Shown: positions 662-36,855 of the stretch, piece after piece
Numbering within the stretch: position 1 is the first letter of the stretch
Layout of the letters: every line of letters starts with the position of its first letter
Origin: Escherichia coli
Lineage (GTDB): Bacteria > Pseudomonadota > Gammaproteobacteria > Enterobacterales > Enterobacteriaceae
Reading direction: 5' to 3' (one strand)
DNA: 64,000 bases
Assembly: GCF_013122565.1 (NCBI RefSeq)
Contig: NZ_CP053258.1
The notes under the pieces: generated by a model
What the model was told of the DNA's origin: nothing
The model's input: only the letters and a program-made list of their open reading frames with translations
Databases searched by the model: none
Position numbers and translations under genes: made by a program

Positions 662-1853
662 CTACCTGCTGCTGCCGCTGATCTACCTGCTGGTTAACGT
701 CAAAATCGCCCAGCTTGGTGAAAGTTTCCCCATCACTATCGTCACTTTTTTACCTGTCTTGTTACTGCTGTTTTTAGAACGCATCAGCGTTAAAAAATTG
801 ATGATTGCCTTAGGGATTGGTGCGGGACTCACGGCGTTTAACTATCTGTTTGGTCAGTCGCTGGATGCCAGTAAATACGTCACTTCAACCATGCTGTTTG
901 TCTATATTGTGATCATTATTGGCATGGTGTGGAGTATTCGCTTTAAAACGATTTCGCCACACAACCATCGCAAGATATTACGTTTCTTTTATCTGGTGGT
1001 CGGGCTGGTGGTGGCGCTGGCGGCGGTGGAGATGGCGCAAATTATCCTCACCGGCGGCAGCAGTATTATGGAGTCGATTTCGAAATATCTGATTTACAGC
1101 AACAGCTATGTGCTGAATTTCATCAAATTCGGCGGCAAGCGCACGACAGCACTTTATTTCGAACCGGCATTTTTCGCTCTGGCATTAATCTCAATTTGGC
1201 TCAGCATCAAACAGTTTGGTATCAAAACGCCTAAAACCGATGCTATGATTCTCGCAGGGATAATATTATCCGGATCGTTTTCAGGGGTTATGGCCTTTAT
1301 CCTGTTTTATTTGCTGGAGTGGGCATTTCAATATCTGAATAAAGAGGCGATTAAGAAAAAGTTACCGTTAGCATTGATTTCTCTGGCTGTATTCCTGGTT
1401 GGTGTAGTAATTGCATTTCCTTATATTTCCACCCGTCTGGGCGATTTAGGTACGGAAGGATCGTCATCGTATTATCGTATTGTCGGTCCGCTGGTGATGG
1501 TCGGTTATTCTTTGACCCATATTGACGGTGTAGTCAGATTTGGCTCACTTTATGAATATGTCGCATCATTCGGAATATTTAACGGTGCGGATGTCGGAAA
1601 AACCATAGACAATGGTTTGTATCTGCTGATTATTTATTTTTCCTGGTTTGCGGTGTTTTTATCGCTGTGGTACATGGGGAAAGTGATAAAAATGATGATC
1701 AACGCTTTTGGTGATAACCGCAATTTTCGCGTGCAATTATATCTTTTTACTCCGGTATCGCTGTTTTTTACCGGTTCGATATTTAGCCCGGAATATGCAT
1801 TTTTAATCGTCTGTCCGTTTATTTTGCGAAAAGCGTTAAATATTACGAGGTAA
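636..1853 (+). CDS. wcaD: Colanic acid polymerase WcaD (polytopic membrane protein)
   Basis: Track ORF 564..1853; internal Met gives 405 aa starting [19 protein letters not shown], matching recalled WcaD N-terminus and length; multiple hydrophobic segments; synteny. Confidence 0.85.
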
Positions 1854-1863
1854 GAATAAGAAC

Positions 1864-2610
1864 ATGTTGCTTAGCATAATCACTGTCGCGTTTCGTAACC
1901 TCGAAGGGATAGTCAAAACACATGCCTCGCTGGCGCATCTGGCGCAGGCGGACGATATGAGCTTCGAATGGATTGTTGTCGATGGCGGTTCCAACGACGG
2001 TACCCGTGAGTATCTGGAAAATCTCAATGGTATCTATAACCTACGCTTTGTCAGCGAGCCAGATAACGGTATCTACGACGCCATGAACAAAGGCATTGCG
2101 ATGGCACAAGGCAAGTTCGCGTTGTTTCTCAATTCGGGCGATATTTTTCATCAGGATGCCGCAAATTTTGTCCGTAAGTTAAAAGTGCAAAAAGATAACG
2201 TGATGATCACCGGCGATGCGCTGCTGGATTTTGGCGACGGGCATAAAATTAAACGTAGCGCCAAACCGGGCTGGTATATTTATCACAGCCTGCCCGCCAG
2301 TCATCAGGCGATATTTTTCCCGGTATCCGGCTTGAAAAAATGGCGTTATGACCTGGAATATAAAGTTTCTTCTGATTACGCGCTGGCGGCCAAAATGTAT
2401 AAAGCCGGTTATGCATTTAAAAAACTCAATGGCCTGGTGTCTGAATTTTCTATGGGTGGGGTATCTACCACCAATAATATGGAATTGTGTGCTGACGCGA
2501 AAAAAGTCCAACGGCAAATATTACATGTGCCTGGCTTCTGGGCAGAATTATCCTGGCATTTACGCCAACGTACTACCTCAAAGACGAAAGCCTTATATAA
2601 CAAAAGCTGA
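1864..2610 (+). CDS. wcaE: Colanic acid biosynthesis glycosyltransferase WcaE (GT2)
   Basis: 248 aa ORF starting [18 protein letters not shown]2-like DxD region (VVDGGSNDG); synteny. Confidence 0.9.
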
Positions 2611-2625
2611 ATATAAGGGAAAACG

Positions 2626-3174
2626 ATGCAAGATTTAAGCGGTTTCTCGGTGCCGAAAGGGTTCCGGGGCAGCAATGCTATTAAAGTGCAATTGTGGTGG
2701 GCGGTACAGGCAACAATATTTGCCTGGTCGCCACAAGTATTGTATCGCTGGCGGGCATTTTTATTACGTTTATTCGGCGCAAAAATAGGAAAAAACGTAA
2801 TTATTCGTCCGTCAGTAAAAATTACCTATCCGTGGAAATTAACTTTAGGTGATTACGCGTGGGTCGGCGATGACGTCAATTTATATACCCTCGGTGAAAT
2901 AACCATTGGCGCACATTCGGTGATATCGCAAAAAAGTTATTTATGCACCGGGAGCCACGACCATGCAAGTCAACATTTCACCATTAACGCCACGCCTATT
3001 GTGATTGGCGAGAAATGCTGGCTGGCAACCGATGTTTTTGTTGCCCCAGGCGTCACGATTGGCGACGGCACCGTCGTGGGTGCACGAAGCAGTGTTTTTA
3101 AATCGCTTCCGGCAAATGTGGTTTGCCGGGGGAATCCTGCAGTGGTGATACGCGAACGCGTTGAAACTGAATAA
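2626..3174 (+). CDS. wcaF: Colanic acid biosynthesis acetyltransferase WcaF (hexapeptide-repeat family)
   Basis: 182 aa ORF with left-handed beta-helix type repeats near the C-terminus; synteny. Confidence 0.9.
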   Translation: MQDLSGFSVPKGFRGSNAIKVQLWWAVQATIFAWSPQVLYRWRAFLLRLFGAKIGKNVIIRPSVKITYPWKLTLGDYAWVGDDVNLYTLGEITIGAHSVISQKSYLCTGSHDHASQHFTINATPIVIGEKCWLATDVFVAPGVTIGDGTVVGARSSVFKSLPANVVCRGNPAVVIRERVETE

Positions 3175-3200
3175 ATTCAAAAAATACAGAGGAATAAGAC

Positions 3201-4322
3201 ATGTCAAAAGTCGCTCTCATCACCGGTGTAACCGGACAAGACGGTTCTTACCTGGCAGAGTTTCTGCTGGAAAAAGGTTACGAGGTGCATGGTATTAAGC
3301 GTCGCGCATCGTCATTCAACACCGAGCGCGTGGATCATATTTATCAGGATCCGCACACCTGCAACCCGAAATTCCATCTGCATTATGGCGACCTGAGTGA
3401 TACCTCCAACCTGACGCGCATTTTGCGTGAAGTGCAGCCGGATGAAGTGTACAACCTGGGCGCAATGAGCCACGTTGCGGTTTCTTTTGAGTCACCGGAA
3501 TATACCGCTGACGTCGACGCGATGGGTACGCTGCGCCTGCTCGAGGCGATCCGCTTCCTCGGTCTGGAAAAGAAAACCCGTTTCTATCAGGCTTCCACCT
3601 CTGAACTGTATGGTCTGGTGCAGGAAATTCCGCAGAAAGAAACCACGCCGTTCTACCCGCGATCTCCGTATGCGGTCGCCAAACTGTACGCCTACTGGAT
3701 CACCGTTAACTACCGCGAATCCTACGGCATGTACGCCTGCAACGGTATTCTCTTCAACCATGAATCCCCGCGCCGTGGCGAAACCTTCGTTACCCGCAAA
3801 ATCACCCGCGCAATCGCCAACATCGCCCAGGGGCTGGAGTCGTGCCTGTACCTCGGCAATATGGATTCCCTGCGTGACTGGGGCCATGCCAAAGACTACG
3901 TAAAAATGCAGTGGATGATGCTGCAACAGGAACAGCCGGAAGATTTCGTTATCGCGACCGGCGTTCAGTACTCCGTACGTCAGTTCGTGGAAATGGCGGC
4001 AGCACAGCTGGGCATCAAACTGCGCTTTGAAGGCACGGGTGTTGAAGAGAAGGGCATTGTGGTTTCCGTCACCGGGCATGACGCGCCGGGCGTGAAACCG
4101 GGTGATGTGATTATCGCCGTTGACCCGCGTTACTTCCGTCCGGCTGAAGTTGAAACGCTGCTCGGCGACCCGACCAAAGCGCACGAAAAACTGGGCTGGA
4201 AACCGGAAATCACCCTCAGAGAGATGGTATCTGAAATGGTGGCTAATGACCTCGAAGCGGCGAAAAAACACTCTCTGCTGAAATCTCACGGCTACGACGT
4301 GGCGATCGCGCTGGAGTCATAA
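3201..4322 (+). CDS. gmd: GDP-mannose 4,6-dehydratase
   Basis: 373 aa; N-terminal Rossmann motif [14 protein letters not shown]; short-chain dehydrogenase/reductase-type YxxxK present; followed by fcl and gmm. Confidence 0.95.
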
Positions 4323-4324
4323 GC

Positions 4325-5290
4325 ATGAGTAAACAACGCATTTTTATTGCTGGCCATCGCGGGATGGTCGGTTCCGCCATCAGGCGGCAGCTCGAACAGC
4401 GCGGTGATGTGGAGCTGGTATTACGCACCCGCGATGAACTGAACCTGCTGGACAGCCGCGCGGTGCATGATTTCTTTGCCAGCGAAAGCATTGACCAGGT
4501 CTATCTGGCGGCGGCGAAAGTGGGCGGCATTGTTGCCAACAACACGTATCCGGCGGATTTCATCTATCAGAACATGATGATTGAGAGCAACATCATTCAC
4601 GCCGCGCATCAGAACGACGTGAACAAACTGCTGTTTCTCGGATCGTCCTGTATCTACCCCAAACTGGCAAAACAGCCGATGGCAGAAAGCGAGTTATTGC
4701 AGGGCACGCTGGAGCCGACCAACGAGCCTTACGCCATTGCCAAAATCGCCGGGATCAAACTGTGCGAATCTTACAACCGCCAGTATGGACGCGATTACCG
4801 CTCAGTCATGCCGACCAACCTGTATGGCCCGCATGACAACTTCCACCCGAGTAATTCGCATGTGATCCCTGCATTGCTGCGTCGCTTCCACGAGGCGACG
4901 GCACAGAATGCGCCGGACGTGGTGGTATGGGGCAGCGGTACACCGATGCGTGAATTCCTGCACGTCGATGATATGGCGGCGGCCAGCATTCACGTGATGG
5001 AGCTGGCGCACGAAGTCTGGCTGGAGAACACCCAGCCGATGCTGTCGCATATTAACGTCGGTACCGGTGTTGACTGCACTATCCGCGAGCTGGCGCAAAC
5101 CATCGCCAAAGTGGTGGGTTACAAAGGTCGGGTGGTTTTTGATGCCAGTAAACCGGATGGTACGCCGCGCAAACTGCTGGATGTGACGCGCCTGCATCAG
5201 CTTGGCTGGTATCACGAAATCTCACTGGAAGCGGGGCTTGCCAGCACTTACCAGTGGTTCCTTGAGAATCAAGACCGCTTTCGGGGGTAA
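4325..5290 (+). CDS. fcl: GDP-L-fucose synthase (GDP-4-keto-6-deoxymannose 3,5-epimerase/4-reductase)
   Basis: 321 aa; starts [19 protein letters not shown]; adjacent to gmd; length matches recalled Fcl. Confidence 0.95.
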
Positions 5291-21853: not shown

Positions 21854-23377
21854 TTGAGTGTGATGGTAAAAATGTTTGACTCTATGCATGTTCGGGTTGC
21901 TGTAAATTTTGCATCAAAGATAACATTTGCTTTGATATCTATAATTACAATCCCAGTTATAAAATCAAAATTAGGAGTAAATGCTTATGGTGTCCTAACA
22001 TTCTTTCTATCAATCCAGGTAGTTATATTACTGCTTGAGGGGGGAATGAGTGCCACAATGGCTAGAGGACTATTGAATAAAAAATATAAGATATACAATA
22101 TAAGTAAAGCAGAGTACCAAAGTGTTTATTTTATCTTTTTTATCTTAGTGTCATTATTTGTATTTTCAATTTTTATTGTCTTTAACCATAATATTTCCAC
22201 ATTGATTTACAACCTTGATGATAGGGAAGTCTATAGTTTTATTAGTGCTGATTATGTTATTTTGCTGGCTGGTGCAATGATTGCCTTGCAGTTTTATATC
22301 ATATATTATGAAGCATTATTTGTGGCTTATGAAAAACAAGTCTCTTATGGAATTCATATAATAGTATTTAATGTAGTCAAAACCATAATATCATTATTCT
22401 TGTTGATTGTTTTTAATCTTGGGTTGGATGTTTATTTTTTAGTTCATGTATTTTGTACCTTTATACTTATTATTTTATTGCACATTAAGGCAATAAAAAA
22501 CGGATTATTAGAAATAACAACATTGCGAGTAAAAAAAATATACACAAAAATATCATTTATGAAAGAAGAATTTCATTTTTCTAAAAATATATTATGCGTG
22601 TCCATTCTTTCTGCAATTGCATTCCAAGCTGACAGACTATTTATTACAAAATATATGGGTATTAGTGCTGTTGGAATGTATGGCATTGCTTATACATTAT
22701 CAACAGTACCAACTTTATTTACATCATCATTGTATAATGTTATCTATCCAAGACTTATTATTTTAACAAGAGAGCAAAGCAGCAGTGCGATTTCATTTTT
22801 TGAATTAGTATCGAAATTAATATATATTATCATAATACCCACTTGTGTGATTATTTCGCTTAATTCGACCCAAATCCTAAATATTTGGATAGGAAAGCAC
22901 GAAGGAATAATATCATTGCTGTTAAGTATTCTAATAATAGCGACGTTATTTCAGGGGTTGCAGGTGATTCCTTTTGCACTACAGATGGCTCAAGAACGAC
23001 TAAAATTTACAGTTTTCATGAATGCTATATTTGTGCCCAGCCTAATATTGGCATATTATTTGGTTAGTATTCATAAAATTCTGTTATACATCTCCATAGT
23101 GTGGTCGGTATATAATATAATAACTTTTTTCTCTTTAACTATTTATTTATATGCTAAAAATAAAATGTATACAAGACTACTTATTTTATATTTTAATATA
23201 TGCTTGTGTGCTGTCGTAACAGTAGTTATATGTAGCATTTTTAAAAATCAAGAATCTCAAATATTCTTGTCTCTAGTTAATATTTCTCTTCAGTTTTTTA
23301 TGTCGATGAGCTTGTGCATAATACTGTTGTTCTGGAAAACTATATATGGAGCATTGAGATGTGTTTGTTGTCGGTAG
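21854..23377 (+). CDS. wzx: O-antigen flippase Wzx (polytopic membrane protein)
   Basis: Very hydrophobic ORF with many predicted TM segments; N-terminal region …ITFALISIITIPVIKSKLGVNAYGVLTFF… resembles Wzx/MOP-family signatures; true start may be an internal Met (track ORF 507 aa). Confidence 0.7.
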   Translation: MSVMVKMFDSMHVRVAVNFASKITFALISIITIPVIKSKLGVNAYGVLTFFLSIQVVILLLEGGMSATMARGLLNKKYKIYNISKAEYQSVYFIFFILVSLFVFSIFIVFNHNISTLIYNLDDREVYSFISADYVILLAGAMIALQFYIIYYEALFVAYEKQVSYGIHIIVFNVVKTIISLFLLIVFNLGLDVYFLVHVFCTFILIILLHIKAIKNGLLEITTLRVKKIYTKISFMKEEFHFSKNILCVSILSAIAFQADRLFITKYMGISAVGMYGIAYTLSTVPTLFTSSLYNVIYPRLIILTREQSSSAISFFELVSKLIYIIIIPTCVIISLNSTQILNIWIGKHEGIISLLLSILIIATLFQGLQVIPFALQMAQERLKFTVFMNAIFVPSLILAYYLVSIHKILLYISIVWSVYNIITFFSLTIYLYAKNKMYTRLLILYFNICLCAVVTVVICSIFKNQESQIFLSLVNISLQFFMSMSLCIILLFWKTIYGALRCVCCR

Positions 23378-24528
23378 TAATTGCGACTCATAATCGCGCG
23401 GGATATGCTAAAAAAAGCATAGAAAGTATTCTTTCAATTGATGTTGAAGAATTTCAACTAATTATTCATGATACAAGCGATAATAATGTACTTGAGGAAT
23501 TTTGCGCTGAAATCCAGGATGCTAGATTAAAATATATCCATTGCAATGAATTATTGTCGATGACAGAAAATTTTAATAGAGCATTAGAATATGTTCAGGG
23601 AGAATATACTATAATGATAGGAGATGATGATACGATTTTATCGACAGCGATAAAATATTGTAGATATGCGAAAGAAAAAAAAATTGATGTAATCTCGCAG
23701 AAGATATCTGCAGAGTATTGTTGGCCGGATTTTAGATCTAAGATCTCAGGGGATTTTAACGCATCGTCTCTGATAGTGAACAAATTTACAAGTAACCAAG
23801 TTACTTATGAGGGGCGTAAACAATACTATGAAGCAGTTAAAAACTGTTTTCAAGGTACTGCAAGCCTCCCCAAGTTATATCATGGTATTGTTAAAACTTC
23901 TTTATTGTTAAAGATAAAAGAAAATACAGGTACTTACTTTCATGGGGTTAGCCCTGATATTTCAATTGCATTGTCGTTAGCGTATAACTGCGAACGATAT
24001 ATTGAAGTGGATTATCCAATTACCCTTCCAGGATCTTCGGGGGGAAGTAACGCAGGTAGAAGTGCAATGCGTACTCATGTTGGTAAATTAGACGACGATC
24101 CACATATGAAAAGATTTAAAAGTTATGTCTGGCCAAACTTATTGCCAAGATATTTCAGTGTAGAGACTGTGTGGGCTCAGGCAGGCTTAGTAACAATCCA
24201 AAAAATAGATAATAATAAAGGATTTAATTTTATTAAGTTCTATGCATTATGTTTGATTAAACATCGACCCTATAAAAAATTTATTATTGATGAGATAAAA
24301 AAATACAAGAAAGTAAAAGGAGGGTTTAATTGTATAATTTATACAAAAATTATTTATCACATGTCTTATTTTTATATTAATGGAATATCAAATCTTTCTA
24401 AAAAAATTATAAAATATGTCTTCAAAAAACTTAAGTCTCAAGAGAAGCAAAAAAATATAAAAGCAAATGATATTTTTGAAGCCAGGATGATAATTGAAAA
24501 GGAATTATCAAAGGAAACATTTGAATGA
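23362..24528 (+). CDS. Glycosyltransferase, GT2 family (O-antigen)
   Basis: Track ORF 23314..24528; GT2 N-terminal signature LLSVVIATHNRAGYAKKSIESI and a DxD-like IGDDD; start chosen at MCLLSVV…, overlapping the wzx 3' end. Confidence 0.75.
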   Translation, partial: CLLSVVIATHNRAGYAKKSIESILSIDVEEFQLIIHDTSDNNVLEEFCAEIQDARLKYIHCNELLSMTENFNRALEYVQGEYTIMIGDDDTILSTAIKYCRYAKEKKIDVISQKISAEYCWPDFRSKISGDFNASSLIVNKFTSNQVTYEGRKQYYEAVKNCFQGTASLPKLYHGIVKTSLLLKIKENTGTYFHGVSPDISIALSLAYNCERYIEVDYPITLPGSSGGSNAGRSAMRTHVGKLDDDPHMKRFKSYVWPNLLPRYFSVETVWAQAGLVTIQKIDNNKGFNFIKFYALCLIKHRPYKKFIIDEIKKYKKVKGGFNCIIYTKIIYHMSYFYINGISNLSKKIIKYVFKKLKSQEKQKNIKANDIFEARMIIEKELSKETFE

Positions 24529-25610
24529 TTATATTTTTTACTTTTCTACTTTTCTACTTTTTTATTTTTCTTTCATTGCTTCCTGTTTTAATTAAAGAGA
24601 GAACTAGAGGGAATGGCAAATATTTTTATTTCTTTGATTTATATATTTACTTAGTATTAGCTAGTCTTATTATTTATATAATTTGTACACGAGATATTTT
24701 TTCTGACTCCGATACAGAACGTTATCTTAGTATATTAGAATATTATAGAATAAATGGCTTTTATCTTTTTGATAAGAACTATATTTTTGCTGTGTATACA
24801 TATTTGTACTCTCTATATATAGATGGTTACTATATGTATATGATAATCCCACTTATTACCCTGCTATATTCATATTGTAAGTTAGTAAAACCACTAAAAT
24901 ATCCTGTTTATAGTTTTTCTTTAGTATTAATAGCAACATTTCCTGTTTTTTGGCAATTGAGCGCAAGCGCATTTAAACAATGCATTGCAATATCTTTTAT
25001 TCTTTTAGCATTAGTGCATATTATACAAACAAAATATAAACAAGCGGTGCTTTTATCTCTTATAGCTAGTTCCTTCCATTTCACAGCATTAACATTTTTT
25101 ATATTTTCGTTGTTTTTCTATATTAGAAAGGAAAGGGTCAGTTTAAATTTATTTTTTTTTATTTGGTTTTTTAGTGTCATTTTTAGCATAAGCGGATTAA
25201 ATTCGTATATTCCTTCAATTATACCTTTTTATGATTTAGTGGGTGAAAGTAAGGTCAATATTTATCTTGAATCAACAAATAATGCAACTGGTTTTCGTGT
25301 TGATTTCTTTTTGTTTTCACTAGCCCCTGTGTTAATTATATTTATTAACAGAACATTAGTAATAAAAGATCGCTATATTAAAATGATTGCATTAAGTTAT
25401 TTATATTTCAATTCTATATATAATATAATGTCATTCATCCCATTTTCAGATAGAGTTGCCGCATATTCATGGTGTCTTTCCCCCATTATTCTATTATGGA
25501 GTGCTCTTAAGTGTAGATCATCAATTTATATGTTAAGTTCTATAGGGATTGCGTTATTAAATCCTTTGATTTTTATGTACTATAATTCATTGTTTATTTT
25601 TTTAAAGTGA
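24525..25610 (+). CDS. wzy: O-antigen polymerase Wzy (polytopic membrane protein)
   Basis: 361 aa, extremely hydrophobic and AT-rich with about 10 predicted TM segments; positioned between GT genes as in typical Wzx/Wzy-dependent clusters. Assignment is by composition and context, since Wzy sequences are poorly conserved. Confidence 0.6.
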   Translation: MIIFFTFLLFYFFIFLSLLPVLIKERTRGNGKYFYFFDLYIYLVLASLIIYIICTRDIFSDSDTERYLSILEYYRINGFYLFDKNYIFAVYTYLYSLYIDGYYMYMIIPLITLLYSYCKLVKPLKYPVYSFSLVLIATFPVFWQLSASAFKQCIAISFILLALVHIIQTKYKQAVLLSLIASSFHFTALTFFIFSLFFYIRKERVSLNLFFFIWFFSVIFSISGLNSYIPSIIPFYDLVGESKVNIYLESTNNATGFRVDFFLFSLAPVLIIFINRTLVIKDRYIKMIALSYLYFNSIYNIMSFIPFSDRVAAYSWCLSPIILLWSALKCRSSIYMLSSIGIALLNPLIFMYYNSLFIFLK

Positions 25611-25616
25611 GTATAT

Positions 25617-26630
25617 ATGTTTAACGGTAAAAAGATTTTAATCACTGGTGGTACTGGGTCATTTGGTAATGCAGTGTTACGTCGGTTTCTTGAGACAGAT
25701 ATTCAAGAGGTTATTATTTTCAGTAGAGATGAAAAAAAACAAGATGAGATGAGAACGCTATATCGCAATGATAAAATGAAATTTATTATAGGTGATATTA
25801 GAGATTATACATCTGTTTTAGCTGCAACTAGTGACGTTGACTATATATTCCATGCTGCGGCTTTAAAACAGGTGCCTTCATGTGAATTTTATCCATGGGA
25901 AGCAGTTAAAACGAATATAATTGGTACAGAAAATTTATTAAATGCTGCAAAACAAAATAAAGTTAAAAAAACAATTTGTTTGAGCACTGATAAAGCTGTG
26001 TATCCAATTAACGCAATGGGAATTTCGAAGGCTATGATGGAAAAAGTGATGACAGCAAAGGCTAGGACGTTCAACAATGAAGATTCAGTTGTTTGCGGAA
26101 CTCGTTATGGCAATGTTATGGCATCACGCGGCTCTGTTATCCCTCTGTTCATTCAGCAGATTCAAACAAATCAACCATTAACTATAACAGACCCTGAAAT
26201 GACTAGATTCATGATGACGTTAGATGATGCTGTAGATCTCGTATTATTTGCATTTAATAACGGGCAAAACGGTGACATTTTTGTTCAGAAAGCGCCTGCC
26301 GCGACAATTGCTGTGCTTGCTAAAGCATTAGTTGAATTGATGGGGGTGCCAAACCATCCTATTAAAGTAGTTGGTTCACGTCATGGGGAAAAGATATATG
26401 AAACCTTACTTAGCCGTGAAGAAATGGCAAAAGCGATTGATCATGGAGATTATTATCAGATTCAACCAGATAATCGTGATCTGAATTATGACAAATATTT
26501 AAGCGAAGGGAGTAAAAAAATTGAGCTGTTTGATGATTACAATTCCCATAATACATATAGACTCAATGTTGATGAAATGAAAAAATTATTGTTAAAACTC
26601 AATATCATTCAAAATGTGTTAAATAGTTAA
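25617..26630 (+). CDS. UDP-N-acetylglucosamine 4,6-dehydratase/5-epimerase (FnlA/WbvB/CapE family)
   Basis: 337 aa starting MFNGKKILITGGTGSFGNAVLRRFLETDI with …YIFHAAALKQVPSCEF… and …CLSTDKAVYPINAMGISKAMMEKV…, closely resembling recalled FnlA/Cap5E sequences. Confidence 0.85.
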   Translation: MFNGKKILITGGTGSFGNAVLRRFLETDIQEVIIFSRDEKKQDEMRTLYRNDKMKFIIGDIRDYTSVLAATSDVDYIFHAAALKQVPSCEFYPWEAVKTNIIGTENLLNAAKQNKVKKTICLSTDKAVYPINAMGISKAMMEKVMTAKARTFNNEDSVVCGTRYGNVMASRGSVIPLFIQQIQTNQPLTITDPEMTRFMMTLDDAVDLVLFAFNNGQNGDIFVQKAPAATIAVLAKALVELMGVPNHPIKVVGSRHGEKIYETLLSREEMAKAIDHGDYYQIQPDNRDLNYDKYLSEGSKKIELFDDYNSHNTYRLNVDEMKKLLLKLNIIQNVLNS

Positions 26631-26642
26631 GGATAATTTATA

Positions 26643-27512
26643 ATGCAAAAAATATTGATCTTAGGTGTGAGTGGTATGCTTGGGCATACCCTCTTTCGTT
26701 TTTTATCATCTCAGCAGGATCTTTTAGTAACTGGTACAGTACGCCATATTACGCAAGAAATAAAATTAGTATCATCTAAGAATATAGTCCTGATGAGAGA
26801 TGTCTTTAACAAAGAAAAATTAGAAAACATTATAAATTCGAATGATGTTATTATAAATTGCATTGGCGCAATTAAGCAGAAATATGATAATAAAAATACA
26901 GATTATATTCTGTTAAATTCGTACTTTCCACATCTTCTTAATGAAATTTGTATAGAATCTAATAAAAGGCTAATTCATTTCTCAACAGATTGTATTTTTA
27001 ACGGTGAGAAAGGAAATTATGATGATGGTAGTTTATCAAATGTTATAGATATGTATGGTAAATCTAAATATTTAGGTGAGGTTTATGGTGATAAAACACT
27101 TACTTTAAGGACATCATTAATTGGGCATGAATTAAAATCATCGTATAGTTTGATTGATTGGTTTTTGAACTCAAACTCAACTGTCAATGGTTATACAAAA
27201 GCTATTTTCAGTGGATTGCCAACCATAGAAATTGCGCATTTTTTATATGAGCATGTTTTACAATCCCAGTTGCATGGTATTTATAATTTATCAGCAGCAC
27301 CAATTTCAAAATTCGATTTATTGACTTTAGTCAATGAAGTATACAAACTTAATAAAACCATCGTTCCTAAAAGTGACTTTGTGATTGATCGTTCTCTTGA
27401 CTCTCATAGGTTGCGTTCATTAACTAAGTATACACCTCCTGACTGGAATACTCTTGTTGTAAAGATGTATTTAGATTACTTAAGTTTAGGGGCATTGCTT
27501 AATGAAAGATAA
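26643..27512 (+). CDS. RmlD-like NAD(P)-dependent sugar-nucleotide 4-reductase (WbvR/QnlB-like)
   Basis: 289 aa starting MQKILILGVSGMLGHTLFRFL (Rossmann GxxGxxG) with YGKSK catalytic dyad; length and family fit dTDP-4-dehydrorhamnose reductase-like enzymes that follow FnlA-type dehydratases in L-QuiNAc/L-RhaNAc pathways. Confidence 0.7.
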   Translation: MQKILILGVSGMLGHTLFRFLSSQQDLLVTGTVRHITQEIKLVSSKNIVLMRDVFNKEKLENIINSNDVIINCIGAIKQKYDNKNTDYILLNSYFPHLLNEICIESNKRLIHFSTDCIFNGEKGNYDDGSLSNVIDMYGKSKYLGEVYGDKTLTLRTSLIGHELKSSYSLIDWFLNSNSTVNGYTKAIFSGLPTIEIAHFLYEHVLQSQLHGIYNLSAAPISKFDLLTLVNEVYKLNKTIVPKSDFVIDRSLDSHRLRSLTKYTPPDWNTLVVKMYLDYLSLGALLNER

Positions 27513-27969
27513 CTTATCTTTTTCTAAACTGATTTCTGAAGCTGAGATTAACTCCAGAAATCGTTCTCATCTTAATTTGCATGAATCTTTTTCTGATCCT
27601 ATACAGAAAACTTTGATTTGCTGTTGTTCGAACACGTATATTCCTCCTCACTATCATAAATTTGCCCATCAAAGTGAATTGTTTATTAGATTAAAAGGAT
27701 GTTTTAGTCTATTAATTTTTTCTGTTGATGGAGTGCTTACCCGTCGTATAACTATAGATGAGGAAAATCCTCTTTATGAGATAAAACCAGGTGTTATTCA
27801 TACGGTGGTAGCTTTAGACAGACATAACATTTTACTTGAAATTAAGAGGGGACCGTATGTCGAATCTGAAGCGAAAAATTTTCCTGATTGGGTAACATTA
27901 GAAAATAGCGATAATCAACTTGATTTAGAGCGATTGCGAACATTGAAGGTCGGTGATAAGTTATCATAA
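27502..27969 (+). CDS. WbuC-like cupin-fold protein of unknown function
   Basis: 155 aa; start overlaps the reductase stop; His-rich motif (…YIPPHYHKFAHQSE…) consistent with a cupin metal site; recalled co-occurrence of WbuC-family cupins with fnl-type genes in O-antigen clusters. Confidence 0.5.
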   Translation: MKDNLSFSKLISEAEINSRNRSHLNLHESFSDPIQKTLICCCSNTYIPPHYHKFAHQSELFIRLKGCFSLLIFSVDGVLTRRITIDEENPLYEIKPGVIHTVVALDRHNILLEIKRGPYVESEAKNFPDWVTLENSDNQLDLERLRTLKVGDKLS

Positions 27970-28003
27970 CAAGGCTATTATAAATTTATTTTAGGTGATA
28001 TCT

Positions 28004-28801
28004 ATGCTTCCATTAATATCTATTATTACACCGACATATAATAGAGCATATACTCTAGATCGGTTATATAATTCTTTAGTAACACAAGACTCTGAAAAAT
28101 TCGAATGGATAATAATCGACGATGGTAGTGCAGATGAAACACGGAAGAAATGTTTAGGTTATATAAATGATTCCATTTTTAAAATACAATATTACAAACA
28201 AGATAATAGTGGTAAACCCGCAGCTATCAATTTAGGAGTAACCAAAGCTGTTGGCGATTATATTTTTATTGTAGATAGTGATGATGCTTTAACATTAAAT
28301 GCAATTGGTACTATTTATGACTGTATTGTAAAATACACAGTCGCATCTGACTTTGAATTTTCCGGCTTAGGATTTAGAAAATCTTTTTTTGATGGGAAAA
28401 TGCTCGGCAAACATATTGAGCGGAATACGAATTCACCTATGCTGTTACATAGCACAGATTGTAATAATTTATTTAAAGTCGATTTAGCATATTGTTTTAA
28501 ACGAGAATTGATGATTAAATATCCTTTCCCAAAGTTTAAAGATGAAAAATTTGTTCCAGAACTGTTTATATGGAATAAAATTACAGATGTTGCCAAAGTA
28601 ATATTTTTTCCTAATGTTGTTGTATATTATTGTGAGTATCTGGCTGATGGACTTACAAATAATTTTAAAAAACAACTTCGACATAATCCAATTGGCTTTG
28701 CAGTATACTATAAAGATCAGTTCCATAGAGAACATTCTATATGGGGGAAAATAAAAATGGCAATAAGATATATCCAATGTATTATATATAAATTCATATA
28801 G
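28004..28801 (+). CDS. Glycosyltransferase, GT2 family (O-antigen)
   Basis: Track ORF from a GTG at 27995; ATG at 28004 preceded by aggtga; GT2 signature ISIITPTYNRAYTLDRLYNSL and DxD (IIDDGSADE, VDSDD). Confidence 0.75.
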   Translation: MLPLISIITPTYNRAYTLDRLYNSLVTQDSEKFEWIIIDDGSADETRKKCLGYINDSIFKIQYYKQDNSGKPAAINLGVTKAVGDYIFIVDSDDALTLNAIGTIYDCIVKYTVASDFEFSGLGFRKSFFDGKMLGKHIERNTNSPMLLHSTDCNNLFKVDLAYCFKRELMIKYPFPKFKDEKFVPELFIWNKITDVAKVIFFPNVVVYYCEYLADGLTNNFKKQLRHNPIGFAVYYKDQFHREHSIWGKIKMAIRYIQCIIYKFI

Positions 28802-28848
28802 TCATGCAGGGTTCATCCATTCATTTAATTAGTTGCTATGATTTTTAT

Positions 28849-29922
28849 ATGAAAATATTACATGTTGTACCACAGTTAAAGCATGGTGGTGTCGAAACTG
28901 CTGTTTTTAATTCTATTGAAAGGATAAGAAAGAGTGGATATGATTTTAATGTTTTGACTATTGAAAGAGGAAACTGCTTTAACAATTCATATGTAAAAGT
29001 AGAACACTGCTTAAATTCTTCTGTATACAATCCAGTTTGTTTTTATAAATTTATTAGATTTATTCATAAAGAAAAACCTGATTTGATAGTTTATTCTTTA
29101 TGGAAATCTGCATTGTTAGGAATTGCATTGTGTCTTTTAAAACCTTTTCTCAAAAGTAAGCCTAAAACCGCGTTAATTATACATAATACTAGGTTTGCAC
29201 ATTTTGTTGATTACATAATAACAAAACTTTCACTTAAAATAACCGACTCTATATATTTTGATTCGGAAAAATCAAAAGCTTACTTTCTGAATAGAGATTA
29301 TGCAACAGGCGAGGTTATTAGTTTTATCGATAAAAAGATGGTGGCAAAAAAATTTAATAATATCAATGGTGAGATTAAGTTTGTATTTATTGGTAGGTTG
29401 CACTCTCAAAAAGGGGTTGATAGGGCATTAAAATATATACATCTTTTTAAAAAGCAACATGAAGAAATACGATTTGATATATATGGTCCAGACGAAGGAG
29501 AATTGAATAATATTATAAATAAGATAAATAAATTAGGATTGCAGGATAAAGTTGTCTATAAAGGTGTTGTCGATAATAACAAAGTTAATGATATATTAAC
29601 CCAATATGACTTTTATCTTCAATTCAGCCATTTTGAAGGAATGGCAATGTCTGTTGTTGATGCGATGCAGGTTGGGGTTATTCCAATCGTTAATAATGTT
29701 GGTGAGATACCAAATTACGTAAAAAACAATATTAACGGCATTATCTTAGATGATAAAAAGCTTGGTGATGAAAACTATCTTAATTTAAATGTATCATGCT
29801 TATTAAATATCATAAAGAATGATGGTGGGTATTTTTTATATAATAACGCGATAAAGACATTTCAGGATAATAATACTTATGTAGATGACTATATAAAGAA
29901 AATAATAAATGCTAACAACTGA
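28849..29922 (+). CDS. Glycosyltransferase, GT4 family (O-antigen)
   Basis: Track ORF 28804..29922; start chosen at MKILHVVPQLKHGGVETAV; C-terminal …FSHFEGMAMSVVDAMQVGVIPIV… is GT4-like; last gene before gnd. Confidence 0.75.
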   Translation: MKILHVVPQLKHGGVETAVFNSIERIRKSGYDFNVLTIERGNCFNNSYVKVEHCLNSSVYNPVCFYKFIRFIHKEKPDLIVYSLWKSALLGIALCLLKPFLKSKPKTALIIHNTRFAHFVDYIITKLSLKITDSIYFDSEKSKAYFLNRDYATGEVISFIDKKMVAKKFNNINGEIKFVFIGRLHSQKGVDRALKYIHLFKKQHEEIRFDIYGPDEGELNNIINKINKLGLQDKVVYKGVVDNNKVNDILTQYDFYLQFSHFEGMAMSVVDAMQVGVIPIVNNVGEIPNYVKNNINGIILDDKKLGDENYLNLNVSCLLNIIKNDGGYFLYNNAIKTFQDNNTYVDDYIKKIINANN

Positions 29923-30041
29923 TATCATGTGTTAAAATTGATTATTTAAAATGGTTTATATAGCTCCTACTAAATAATTTGGCTTTTTCGTAATGGCTGT
30001 GTAGCCGCAATCTCGCAGTAACCCCCTGACAGGAGTAAACA

Positions 30042-31448
30042 ATGTCAAAGCAACAGATCGGCGTCGTCGGTATGGCAGTGATGGGACGCAACCTTGCGCT
30101 CAACATCGAAAGCCGTGGTTATACCGTCTCTATTTTCAACCGTTCCCGTGAAAAGACGGAAGAAGTGATTGCCGAAAATCCAGGCAAAAAACTGGTTCCT
30201 TACTATACGGTGAAAGAGTTCGTTGAATCTCTTGAAACGCCTCGTCGCATCCTGTTAATGGTGAAAGCAGGTGCAGGCACGGATGCTGCTATTGATTCCC
30301 TCAAACCATATCTCGATAAAGGTGACATCATCATTGATGGTGGTAACACCTTCTTCCAGGACACTATTCGTCGTAATCGTGAGCTTTCAGCAGAGGGCTT
30401 TAACTTCATCGGTACCGGTGTTTCCGGCGGTGAAGAGGGGGCGCTGAAAGGGCCTTCCATTATGCCTGGTGGGCAGAAAGAAGCCTATGAACTGGTTGCT
30501 CCGATCCTGACCAAAATCGCCGCCGTTGCTGAAGATGGCGAACCGTGCGTTACCTATATTGGTGCCGATGGCGCGGGTCACTATGTGAAGATGGTTCACA
30601 ACGGTATTGAATACGGTGATATGCAACTGATTGCTGAAGCCTATTCTCTGCTTAAAGGTGGCCTTAATCTTTCCAACGAAGAACTGGCGCAGACGCTTAC
30701 CGAGTGGAATAACGGTGAACTGAGCAGCTACCTGATCGACATCACCAAAGACATCTTCACTAAAAAAGATGAAGACGGTAACTACCTGGTTGATGTGATC
30801 CTGGATGAAGCGGCTAACAAAGGTACCGGTAAATGGACCAGCCAGAGCGCGCTTGATCTCGGCGAACCGCTGTCGCTGATTACCGAGTCTGTGTTTGCAC
30901 GTTATATCTCTTCTCTGAAAGAGCAGCGTGTTGCCGCATCTAAAGTTCTCTCTGGCCCGCAAGCGCAGCCAGCTGGCGACAAAGGTGAGTTCATCGAAAA
31001 AGTTCGTCGTGCTCTGTATCTGGGCAAAATCGTTTCTTACGCTCAGGGCTTCTCTCAGCTGCGTGCGGCGTCTGAAGAGTACAACTGGGATCTGAATTAC
31101 GGCGAAATCGCGAAGATTTTCCGTGCTGGCTGCATCATCCGTGCGCAGTTCTTGCAGAAAATCACCGATGCTTATGCCGAAAATCCGCAGATCGCTAACC
31201 TGCTGCTGGCTCCGTACTTCAAGCAAATTGCCGATGACTACCAGCAGGCGCTGCGTGATGTCGTTGCTTATGCAGTACAGAACGGTATCCCGGTTCCGAC
31301 CTTCGCTGCTGCGGTTGCCTATTACGATAGCTACCGTGCCGCTGTTCTGCCTGCGAACCTGATCCAGGCACAGCGTGACTATTTCGGTGCGCATACTTAT
31401 AAGCGCATTGATAAAGAAGGTGTGTTCCATACTGAATGGCTGGATTAA
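30042..31448 (+). CDS. gnd: 6-phosphogluconate dehydrogenase, decarboxylating
   Basis: 468 aa starting [30 protein letters not shown]; canonical right flank of the O-antigen locus. Confidence 0.97.
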
Positions 31449-31476
31449 TCTGATTTAACCAACAATAAAATTGAGG

Positions 31477-31507
31477 CCCGGCGTATATTGCACCGGGCTT
31501 TTTTTTG
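31477..31507 (+). terminator. Rho-independent terminator downstream of gnd
   Basis: Direct reading: gcccgg-loop-ccgggc stem followed by a T8 run (ggcccggcgtatattgcaccgggcttttttttg). Confidence 0.6.
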
Positions 31508-31687
31508 CCAATTATCTTATAGACTAAATTTCACTGCTTAATATTAACTTAATAAATATCAGCTATTCTTATAAAGAAAATCTGAATTGTTTTTCGTTGC
31601 GTTGACCATCGAACAACGTAGCGTTAAAACTTTTAGCTCTTATCAGGATGCTAAAAACATCATGATTCACAGTTAAGTTAATTCTGA

Positions 31688-32863
<1,176 letters not shown>

Positions 32864-32872
32864 CATCTTGTT

Positions 32873-32906
32873 ATCAGGGCTATTTACGCCCTGATTGTCT
32901 TTTGTT
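32873..32906 (+). terminator. Probable rho-independent terminator downstream of ugd
   Basis: atcagggc-tattta-gccctgat stem-loop followed by a T-rich tract (ttgtcttttgtt). Confidence 0.45.
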
Positions 32907-33005
32907 ACTTACGCAACAATTCATTATTTTTATCACTTATCCTATAGCATTCACGAGGATTATCGCTAAACTATGCGGACTTGGAAATTTCCGTCAGTTA
33001 GGGTA

Positions 33006-33986
33006 ATGATGAGAGTAGAAAATAATAATGTTTCTGGGCAAAACCATGACCCGGAACAGATTGATTTGATTGATTTACTAGTGCAGTTGTGGCGTGGCAA
33101 GATGACAATCATCATTTCCGTCATTGTGGCTATTGCCCTGGCTATTGGATATTTGGCAGTAGCGAAGGAGAAATGGACGTCAACAGCAATTATCACTCAG
33201 CCCGACGTGGGGCAAATTGCTGGCTATAACAATGCCATGAATGTTATCTATGGTCAGGCTGCGCCGAAAGTATCGGATTTACAGGAGACGTTGATTGGTC
33301 GCTTTAGTTCTGCCTTCTCTGCATTAGCAGAAACGCTGGATAATCAGGATGAACCAGAAAAACTTACCATCGAACCTTCTGTTAAGAACCAGCAATTACC
33401 ATTGACTGTTTCTTATGTTGGGCAAACTGCAGAGGGCGCACAAATAAAGTTGGCCCAATACATTCAGCAAGTTGACGATAAAGTGAATCAAGAGCTTGAA
33501 AAGGATCTCAAGGACAACATTGCTCTGGGACGCAAAAACTTGCAGGACTCTTTAAGAACCCAGGAAGTAGTCGCGCAGGAGCAGAAAGATCTGCGTATCC
33601 GTCAGATTCAGGAAGCGTTGCAGTATGCGAATCAGGCGCAGGTGACAAAGCCACAGGTTCAGCAGACTGAAGATGTGACGCAAGATACGTTGTTCCTTTT
33701 GGGGAGCGAAGCGCTGGAGTCGATGATTAAGCATGAGGCGACCCGTCCGTTGGTGTTCTCGCCAAACTACTATCAGACTCGTCAAAACCTGCTGGATATC
33801 GAAAGCTTAAAAGTTGATGATCTTGATATTCATGCTTACCGTTATGTGATGAAACCGACGTTACCTATTCGTCGTGATAGCCCGAAAAAGGCAATTACCT
33901 TGATTCTGGCGGTGCTGCTGGGCGGCATGGTTGGCGCGGGGATTGTGCTGGGGCGTAATGCTCTGCGTAATTACAACGCGAAGTAA
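33006..33986 (+). CDS. wzzB: O-antigen chain-length determinant WzzB (polysaccharide co-polymerase PCP-1)
   Basis: Track ORF 32973..33986; recalled WzzB N-terminus MRVENNNVSGQNHDPEQIDLIDLLVQLWRGK; two tandem ATGs (33006/33009) make the exact start ambiguous; two TM segments flank a coiled-coil-rich periplasmic region. Confidence 0.85.
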   Translation: MMRVENNNVSGQNHDPEQIDLIDLLVQLWRGKMTIIISVIVAIALAIGYLAVAKEKWTSTAIITQPDVGQIAGYNNAMNVIYGQAAPKVSDLQETLIGRFSSAFSALAETLDNQDEPEKLTIEPSVKNQQLPLTVSYVGQTAEGAQIKLAQYIQQVDDKVNQELEKDLKDNIALGRKNLQDSLRTQEVVAQEQKDLRIRQIQEALQYANQAQVTKPQVQQTEDVTQDTLFLLGSEALESMIKHEATRPLVFSPNYYQTRQNLLDIESLKVDDLDIHAYRYVMKPTLPIRRDSPKKAITLILAVLLGGMVGAGIVLGRNALRNYNAK

Positions 33987-34040
33987 TCTTTTCGGTTTTA
34001 AAGAAAACGGGCAGGGTGGTGACACCTTGCCCGTTATTTT

Positions 34041-34120
34041 GCCGGATGCGATGCTGGCGCAACTTATCCAGCCTACATGTGCAGAGCGAATAGTAGGCCC
34101 GATAAGCTTGCGCATCGGGC
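34041..34120. repeat. REP-type palindromic elements between wzzB and the his operon 3' end
   Basis: gccggatgcg…cttatccagcctac and gcccgataagcttgcgcatcgggc palindromes typical of enterobacterial REP units. Confidence 0.5.

Positions 34121-34777: not shown

Positions 34778-36855
<2,078 letters not shown>

Follow-up and report, generated by a model that had tools for sequence, protein, structure and literature searches.

The O3 gene cluster and the wzx-wclS junction

The DNA studied here is a window of 64,000 nt from Escherichia coli (contig NZ_CP053258.1), in which the segment at ~19.8 to 29.9 kb is, as its sequence indicates, the known and already annotated E. coli O3 O-antigen gene cluster. 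Within this cluster lie wzx, the gene for the O-antigen flippase, and wclS, the gene for a family 2 glycosyltransferase (GT2), which share a short region that is read in two frames (Table 1).

Table 1. Features at the junction of wzx and wclS, in coordinates of the window
Feature	Position	Strand	Description
wzx	21872..23377	+	O3-family O-antigen flippase; ORF, Pfam PF01943/PF13440, RefSeq annotation
Open GT2 frame upstream of the predicted wclS start	23314..23358	+	3' part of wzx only, not wclS coding
Shine-Dalgarno-like GGAG of wclS	23348..23351	+	Inside wzx codons Y-G-A; 7-nt spacer to ATG; same in contig L002
Region read in two frames	23359..23377	+	19 nt; wzx and wclS
wclS	23359..24528	+	Family 2 glycosyltransferase, 389 aa, from ATG 23359

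When 5,426 complete E. coli genomes were searched by megablast with positions 21800 to 24600 (2.8 kb), 16 of them matched at 99.4 to 99.6% identity, and the RefSeq annotation of these 16 reads O3 family O-antigen flippase, glycosyltransferase family 2 protein, and O3 family O-antigen polymerase. The assignment to O3 is carried by the serogroup-specific genes wzx and wzy, which are near-identical in DNA to their O3-typed counterparts, and by the location of the cluster between galF and gnd with the gene order of O3, as seen from its collinearity with NZ_CP104681.1, the O3 reference genome used for our alignments (locus L001). The collinear series runs through the colanic acid genes, galF, ISAs1, a GT4 gene, wzx, the GT2 gene, wzy, an FnlA-like gene, a reductase gene, wbuC, a further GT2 and a further GT4 gene, gnd, ugd, wzzB, and his. 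Pfam identifies the GT4 upstream of wzx, EpsG (a Wzy type) as the product of the gene after wclS, and, further on, a dehydratase that resembles FnlA. L-RhaNAc is present in no other E. coli O antigen than O3 (PMC7685785), and the occurrence of an FnlA-like gene and a reductase gene after wzy is in keeping with this serogroup. Beyond the cluster, the yeeZ-plaP flank shares 99.0% identity with ordinary E. coli.

The divergence between the window and NZ_CP104681.1 is mosaic (19400 to 34050 compared), the O3 genes showing ~1 to 10 differences per 500 nt and gnd-ugd-wzzB (29500 to 34000) 15 to 39 per 500 nt; the colanic acid genes are 96 to 97% identical. The G+C content is 30.2% in the O3 cluster compared to ~52% in its flanks. 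Mosaic divergence of this kind, together with the contrast in G+C, is what horizontal transfer and recombination usually leave behind at an O-antigen locus.

The O-antigen operon has its RfaH site, the ops element GGCGGTAG, at 18364 to 18371. An inserted ISAs1 transposase ORF (349 aa; 18613 to 19662; PF13808, PF01609) separates this element from the first O3 gene, and NZ_CP104681.1 carries the same transposase with the annotation of a frameshifted gene. Upstream of wzx, the ~840 nt that follow the first GT4 gene (21013 to 21853) have no long ORF, and their counterpart measures only 116 nt in L002, a syntenic contig described below. At this gap the RefSeq locus-tag series omits one number, and the gap holds, at 21328 to 21540, a stop-interrupted remnant of the N terminus of an ISAs1-family transposase (PF13808, DDE_Tnp_1_assoc; E = 1.5e-6, below the gathering score). 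Further upstream, the wzxC-wcaK intergenic region contains a repeat unit of ~188 nt (12860 to 13047; about 2 × 94 nt) that matches three staggered positions in the reference locus L001 (2413 to 2792), which suggests that the copy number of this repeat varies between strains.

The ends of wzx and wclS

The wzx frame is a 507-codon ORF with its maximal start at TTG 21854 and, as originally predicted, it extends to 23377, where it closes with TAG (23375 to 23377). Its product scores above the Pfam cut-offs of both PF01943 (Polysacc_synt; 33.6 bits, cut-off 28.2) and PF13440 (27.1 bits, cut-off 23), and a hydropathy scan finds multiple hydrophobic segments along the 501-aa protein. With its Polysacc_synt match and its polytopic membrane profile, Wzx is a predicted O-unit flippase of the Wzx/MOP superfamily. 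According to the same scan, the last hydrophobic segment lies at about residues 466 to 488 (centers at ~473 to 491) and is followed by a tail, KTIYGALRCVCCR, with three positive charges; the overlap with wclS encodes just the final six residues of this tail. The 5' end of wzx is ambiguous, the candidates being TTG 21854, ATG 21863, ATG 21872, and ATG 21884, ahead of none of which a clear Shine-Dalgarno (SD) sequence was seen. We favor ATG 21872 (501 aa), because the N termini of the homologs P0002 and P0003, which start four residues ahead of the H/Q in 'HVRVAVNF', align there. The 501-aa form occurs on 97 contigs, and RefSeq/PGAP uses ATG 21884 (497 aa).

The GT2 frame, a different frame of the same strand, opens at GTG 23314, its first possible start—again in line with the original prediction—and ends at 24528. 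Its product carries an N-terminal Glycos_transf_2 domain (PF00535; 48.7 bits, cut-off 23.3, E = 1e-12), with residues 5 to 101, counted from ATG 23359, matching profile positions 1 to 99, and WclS is predicted from this domain to be a family 2 glycosyltransferase with the GT-A fold. The GT2 motif had been placed at about 23362, three bases too far downstream: the ATG with which the peptide MCLLSVVIATHNR begins occupies 23359 to 23361, and this codon is the predicted start of wclS. Aligned to the maximal ORF of 404 aa, ~120 GT2 homologs have their N termini 0 to 6 residues ahead of the LLSxVxxTHNR motif, with MFLLSVVIATHNR as the N terminus of the closest one, at the equivalent ATG. The 389-aa protein that starts here is recorded as WclS (UniRef B5T074_ECOLX); a literature search for the name 'wclS' returned unrelated abbreviations only.

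Two other starts deserve consideration, namely, GTG 23314, which as the first start codon of the open frame would give a protein of 404 aa and an overlap of 64 nt, and TTG 23368, which would give 386 aa and an overlap of 10 nt and is the PGAP call in both RefSeq O3 records examined. Either is very unlikely to be the true start. The ATG is kept in L002 and in the Limnobaculum locus L003, whereas L002 has TAT at the position of GTG 23314 and CTT at that of TTG 23368; the GGAG lies 7 nt from ATG 23359, an optimal spacing, compared to 16 nt from TTG 23368; and the 389-aa form is the commonest in annotation, with 772 contigs in an exact-sequence look-up compared to about 82. None of the 120 aligned homologs covers the 15 residues that a start at GTG 23314 would add. 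Moreover, a manual count of codon changes between the window and L002 over 23314 to 23358 gave 6 synonymous and 7 nonsynonymous changes in the wzx frame and 2 synonymous and 9 nonsynonymous changes in the GT2 frame, a pattern in which only the wzx frame behaves as coding. We therefore rejected a longer GT2 protein from GTG 23314, given the lack of homolog support, a start codon that is not conserved, and substitutions that fit the wzx frame alone. The RefSeq/PGAP protein that starts at TTG 23368 (WP_157916699.1) is probably three codons too short, and the evidence favors the original 389-aa model of WclS as the better of the two.

Within 23359 to 23393, the start of wclS also forms an AUGUG motif, a type of start treated for E. 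coli in PMC9841429, whose GUG at 23361 would open a 10-codon ORF in the third frame (VFVVGSNCDS). Since L002 does not keep AUGUG and has ATGTT instead, the motif is probably meaningless.

Conservation and origin of the overlap

Because the wclS ATG lies at 23359 and the wzx TAG ends at 23377, the two genes overlap by 19 nt. An overlap had indeed been foreseen, and it is upheld by the conserved ATG and by the ~120 homologs that start near the motif; its expected length of 16 nt has to be corrected. Read in the wzx frame, the 19 nt encode the last base of codon R496, C-V-C-C-R, and the stop, and read in the wclS frame they encode M-C-L-L-S-V-(V). We regard it as very probable that this site is the wzx-wclS junction of the known O3 operon, with a 19-nt overlap read in two frames and with the origin and translation scheme proposed below.

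The overlap is real and conserved and is no property of this assembly alone. Positions 23312 to 23460 are identical in 16/16 complete E. coli O3 genomes, and a 201-nt query centered on the junction met a single mismatch in all 16 (5,426 E. coli genomes searched), the one difference from NZ_CP104681.1 in this interval being a substitution at 23311. Outside Escherichia, the nearest Wzx is P0002 (501 aa, 48% identity; Logan assembly of run ERR14048323), which aligns in frame to the very last Wzx residue (...ILLFWKKLFGAIKCFCFR versus ...ILLFWKTIYGALRCVCCR). Its contig, L002 (9.2 kb, 31% G+C), is fully syntenic with E. coli O3, with the genes for GT4, Wzx, GT2, an EpsG-type Wzy, an FnlA-like protein, a reductase, DUF6016/WbuC, GT2, and GT4 in the same order as in the window. 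There, wzx (1701 to 3206) ends with TAG and overlaps the GT2 gene (3188 to 4354) by 19 nt, and the architecture of the junction is alike, with GGAG-cgataaa-ATGTTTTTGCTTTCGGTAG in L002 and GGAG-cattgag-ATGTGTTTGTTGTCGGTAG in the window. In the overlap, 16/19 bases are identical between the two, compared to a DNA identity of 61.6% for the whole of wzx and 65.4% for the whole of wclS.

The suspicion that the 3' end of wzx is an extension produced by a frameshift—either a homopolymer error or a recent, strain-specific indel, with the true Wzx ending upstream of the GT2 start—draws on the AT-rich sequence of the cluster (30.2% G+C), on the short T runs of the junction region, and on the Wzx of Limnobaculum, which aligns 9 residues shorter. 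It is nevertheless hardly conceivable in view of the comparisons. Relative to NZ_CP104681.1, wzx and wclS show substitutions and no indels, with 34 differences over 21000 to 25700 and 0 in 23314 to 23377, and the junction is the same in 16 independent complete genomes, that is, in 16/16 O3 genomes among the 5,426 of E. coli; on these two grounds we rejected a frameshift or assembly error. The Wzx protein cluster has 257 members and includes E. albertii, in which the protein is the same. P0002, at 48% identity, ends at the same residue, in a locus with the same 19-nt overlap. Finally, the six synonymous changes just upstream of the ATG in the manual codon count imply that the wzx frame is under selection up to the junction.

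The alignment of homologs, which had been proposed for this purpose, fixed the C terminus of Wzx at TAG 23375 to 23377 and the N terminus of the GT2 at ATG 23359. Our word-indexed search yielded four Wzx homologs, the lineages outside Escherichia being two, and their proteins do not end well upstream of 23362, the result that would have spoken against an overlap: P0002 ends at the same codon, and the Limnobaculum protein ends 9 codons earlier, with its aligned end 12 nt before the ATG of the window.

O3-like clusters were found outside Escherichia in L002, in L003 (Limnobaculum zhutongyuii CP034752.1), and in L004 (a Logan contig), with protein identities of 39 to 61%, and L002 may mark the kind of donor lineage behind the O3 cluster. 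In L. zhutongyuii, where Wzx is 39% and the GT2 51% identical, as well as in the related L004, the TAA of wzx directly abuts the ATG of the GT2 gene. Longer overlaps typically arise by loss of the upstream stop, so that reading continues into the downstream gene until a stop comes up in frame (PMC10666635). Because the Limnobaculum wzx ends directly before the ATG, the overlap probably stems from an old loss or shift of the wzx stop: the stop beside the wclS ATG would have been lost or shifted long ago, translation would then have run to the next in-frame stop inside wclS, and the abutting TAA-ATG arrangement would survive in Limnobaculum. The comparison behind this direction of change, in which the overlap is gained and not lost, comprises only three lineages.

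R-C-V-C-C-R, the six residues with which Wzx ends, would close a short tail of positive charge beyond the final membrane helix, and the sequence of these residues may be largely dictated by the conserved N terminus of WclS, M-x-L-L-S-V-V, which would start the first GT-A strand. This N-terminal motif could by itself account for the high conservation of the 19 nt. The tail residues are C-V-C-C-R in the window and C-F-C-F-R in L002, and C-x-C-x-R is conserved between the two overlap-bearing lineages. If the 19-nt geometry were selected in its own right—either as a coupling device that sets the ratio of WclS to Wzx or by virtue of a function of the cysteine-rich Wzx tail, such as acylation or metal binding—then the overlap would be no by-product of the WclS motif; we hold such selection to be highly improbable.

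Translation of wclS and comparison with known overlaps

In the scheme that we propose, wclS would be translated mainly through its own, unstructured SD and ATG, on a polycistronic mRNA with its 5' end ahead of the ops element (18364). A degree of coupling may be contributed by ribosomes that terminate on wzx, 16 nt farther on, and that would either leave the initiation site accessible or reinitiate there. Coupling of this kind is possible and plausible from the geometry, with an SD inside wzx and a stop 16 nt past the ATG.

In a stricter form of coupling, the ribosomes that make WclS would solely or mostly be those that have just completed wzx: after termination at TAG 23375 they would move back 16 nt and reinitiate at ATG 23359, and the output of the transferase would thereby be tied to that of the flippase. 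Such a scheme agrees with a wclS start and an SD that both lie within the upstream gene and with a geometry that is conserved in L002. It also has a precedent in the coat and lysis genes of phage fr, which overlap by 34 nt and in which, according to the account of Adhin and van Duin (1990) given in PMC10666635, starts upstream of a stop can be reached by post-termination ribosomes; stop and start experiments on coat-lysis are described also in PMC12548453. We nevertheless consider strict coupling unlikely. In native E. coli pairs, termination-reinitiation is most efficient at overlaps of -4/-1 nt and falls steeply with distance from this spacing (PMC10666635). Folding found no RNA structure that masks the initiation site, so that de novo initiation at wclS is not blocked. 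The spacing of wzx and the GT2 gene differs in Limnobaculum, which implies that the two genes can do without the 19-nt geometry. Moreover, Wzx and a cytoplasmic glycosyltransferase are not known to associate in a complex of fixed stoichiometry, and we count this against strict coupling as well.

The folding analysis covered segments of 81 and 121 nt at the junction, for which the z-scores were +1.09 and +0.99 in the window and -0.58 and -0.66 in L002. The minimum free energies were no better than those of shuffled sequence, and the pairings predicted for the window are not those predicted for L002. With z-scores this near to shuffled sequence and no pairing in common, there is no evidence for a structure that masks the SD, and the stable structure sequestering SD or start by which coupling through RNA unfolding would be recognized was found neither in the window nor in L002. 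An attenuator or coupling by RNA unfolding at this junction was therefore rejected (z from -0.66 to +1.09; no shared structure); in general, the unfolding and scanning models of coupling both remain open (review, PMC12548453). An internal promoter or terminator was rejected too, as the junction had 0 terminators and 10 promoter-like matches (7.2 ± 2.6 expected), with no convincing promoter on the + strand nearby. The CGGTAG inside the overlap resembles ops by chance: it lacks the first two bases of GGCGGTAG, the codons for S-V-V explain it, and the true ops lies at 18364.

The overlap is part of an already annotated cluster. What the analysis contributes is the removal of a suspected frameshift and, as useful by-products, a set of corrected coordinates (wzx stop, 23377; wclS ATG, 23359; overlap, 19 nt) and the indication that RefSeq has probably placed the start of wclS wrongly. 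The location of the wclS ribosome-binding site inside wzx is also of practical relevance for the expression of WclS and for the deletion of wzx in O3 strains: because this site and the first six codons of wclS lie inside wzx, a clean wzx deletion must spare 23340 to 23377.

Compared to the E. coli O3 cluster as recorded in RefSeq and UniProt (WclS B5T074_ECOLX), the window is 99.4 to 99.6% identical over wzx-wclS-wzy and has the same galF-gnd order and the same junction sequence. From the O3 reference genome it differs by scattered substitutions, with flanks that are more divergent (96 to 98%), as expected for recombination around O-antigen loci. As to the overlap itself, 19 nt between co-directional genes are not statistically remarkable and are ordinary in tightly packed bacterial operons, given that the shared region is shorter than 30 bp in over 80% of the overlapping gene pairs of prokaryotes (PMC12548453). 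In the same cluster, wclS and wzy overlap by 4 nt in the canonical ATGA arrangement (24525 to 24528), and an 11-nt overlap joins the reductase gene to wbuC (27502 to 27512). Canonical coupled pairs of the ATGA/TGATG type, such as trpB/trpA (PMC6728339, PMC10666635), likewise belong to one operon, are co-directional, and have the downstream start and SD inside the upstream gene; they overlap by 4 or 1 nt compared to 19 nt for wzx/wclS, a pair that may be coupled to judge by its geometry. The same geometry recurs in the window itself, where hisA and hisF, genes of the E. coli his operon on the minus strand, have exactly 19 nt in common (35529 to 35547). Like wzx and wclS, these two genes are co-directional, and the SD of hisF, an AGGAGG upstream of its ATG, is located inside the upstream gene. 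The his pair differs in that it encodes two enzymes of one pathway, and its sequence is unrelated to the wzx-wclS junction; it provides a handy internal control for the geometry described here.
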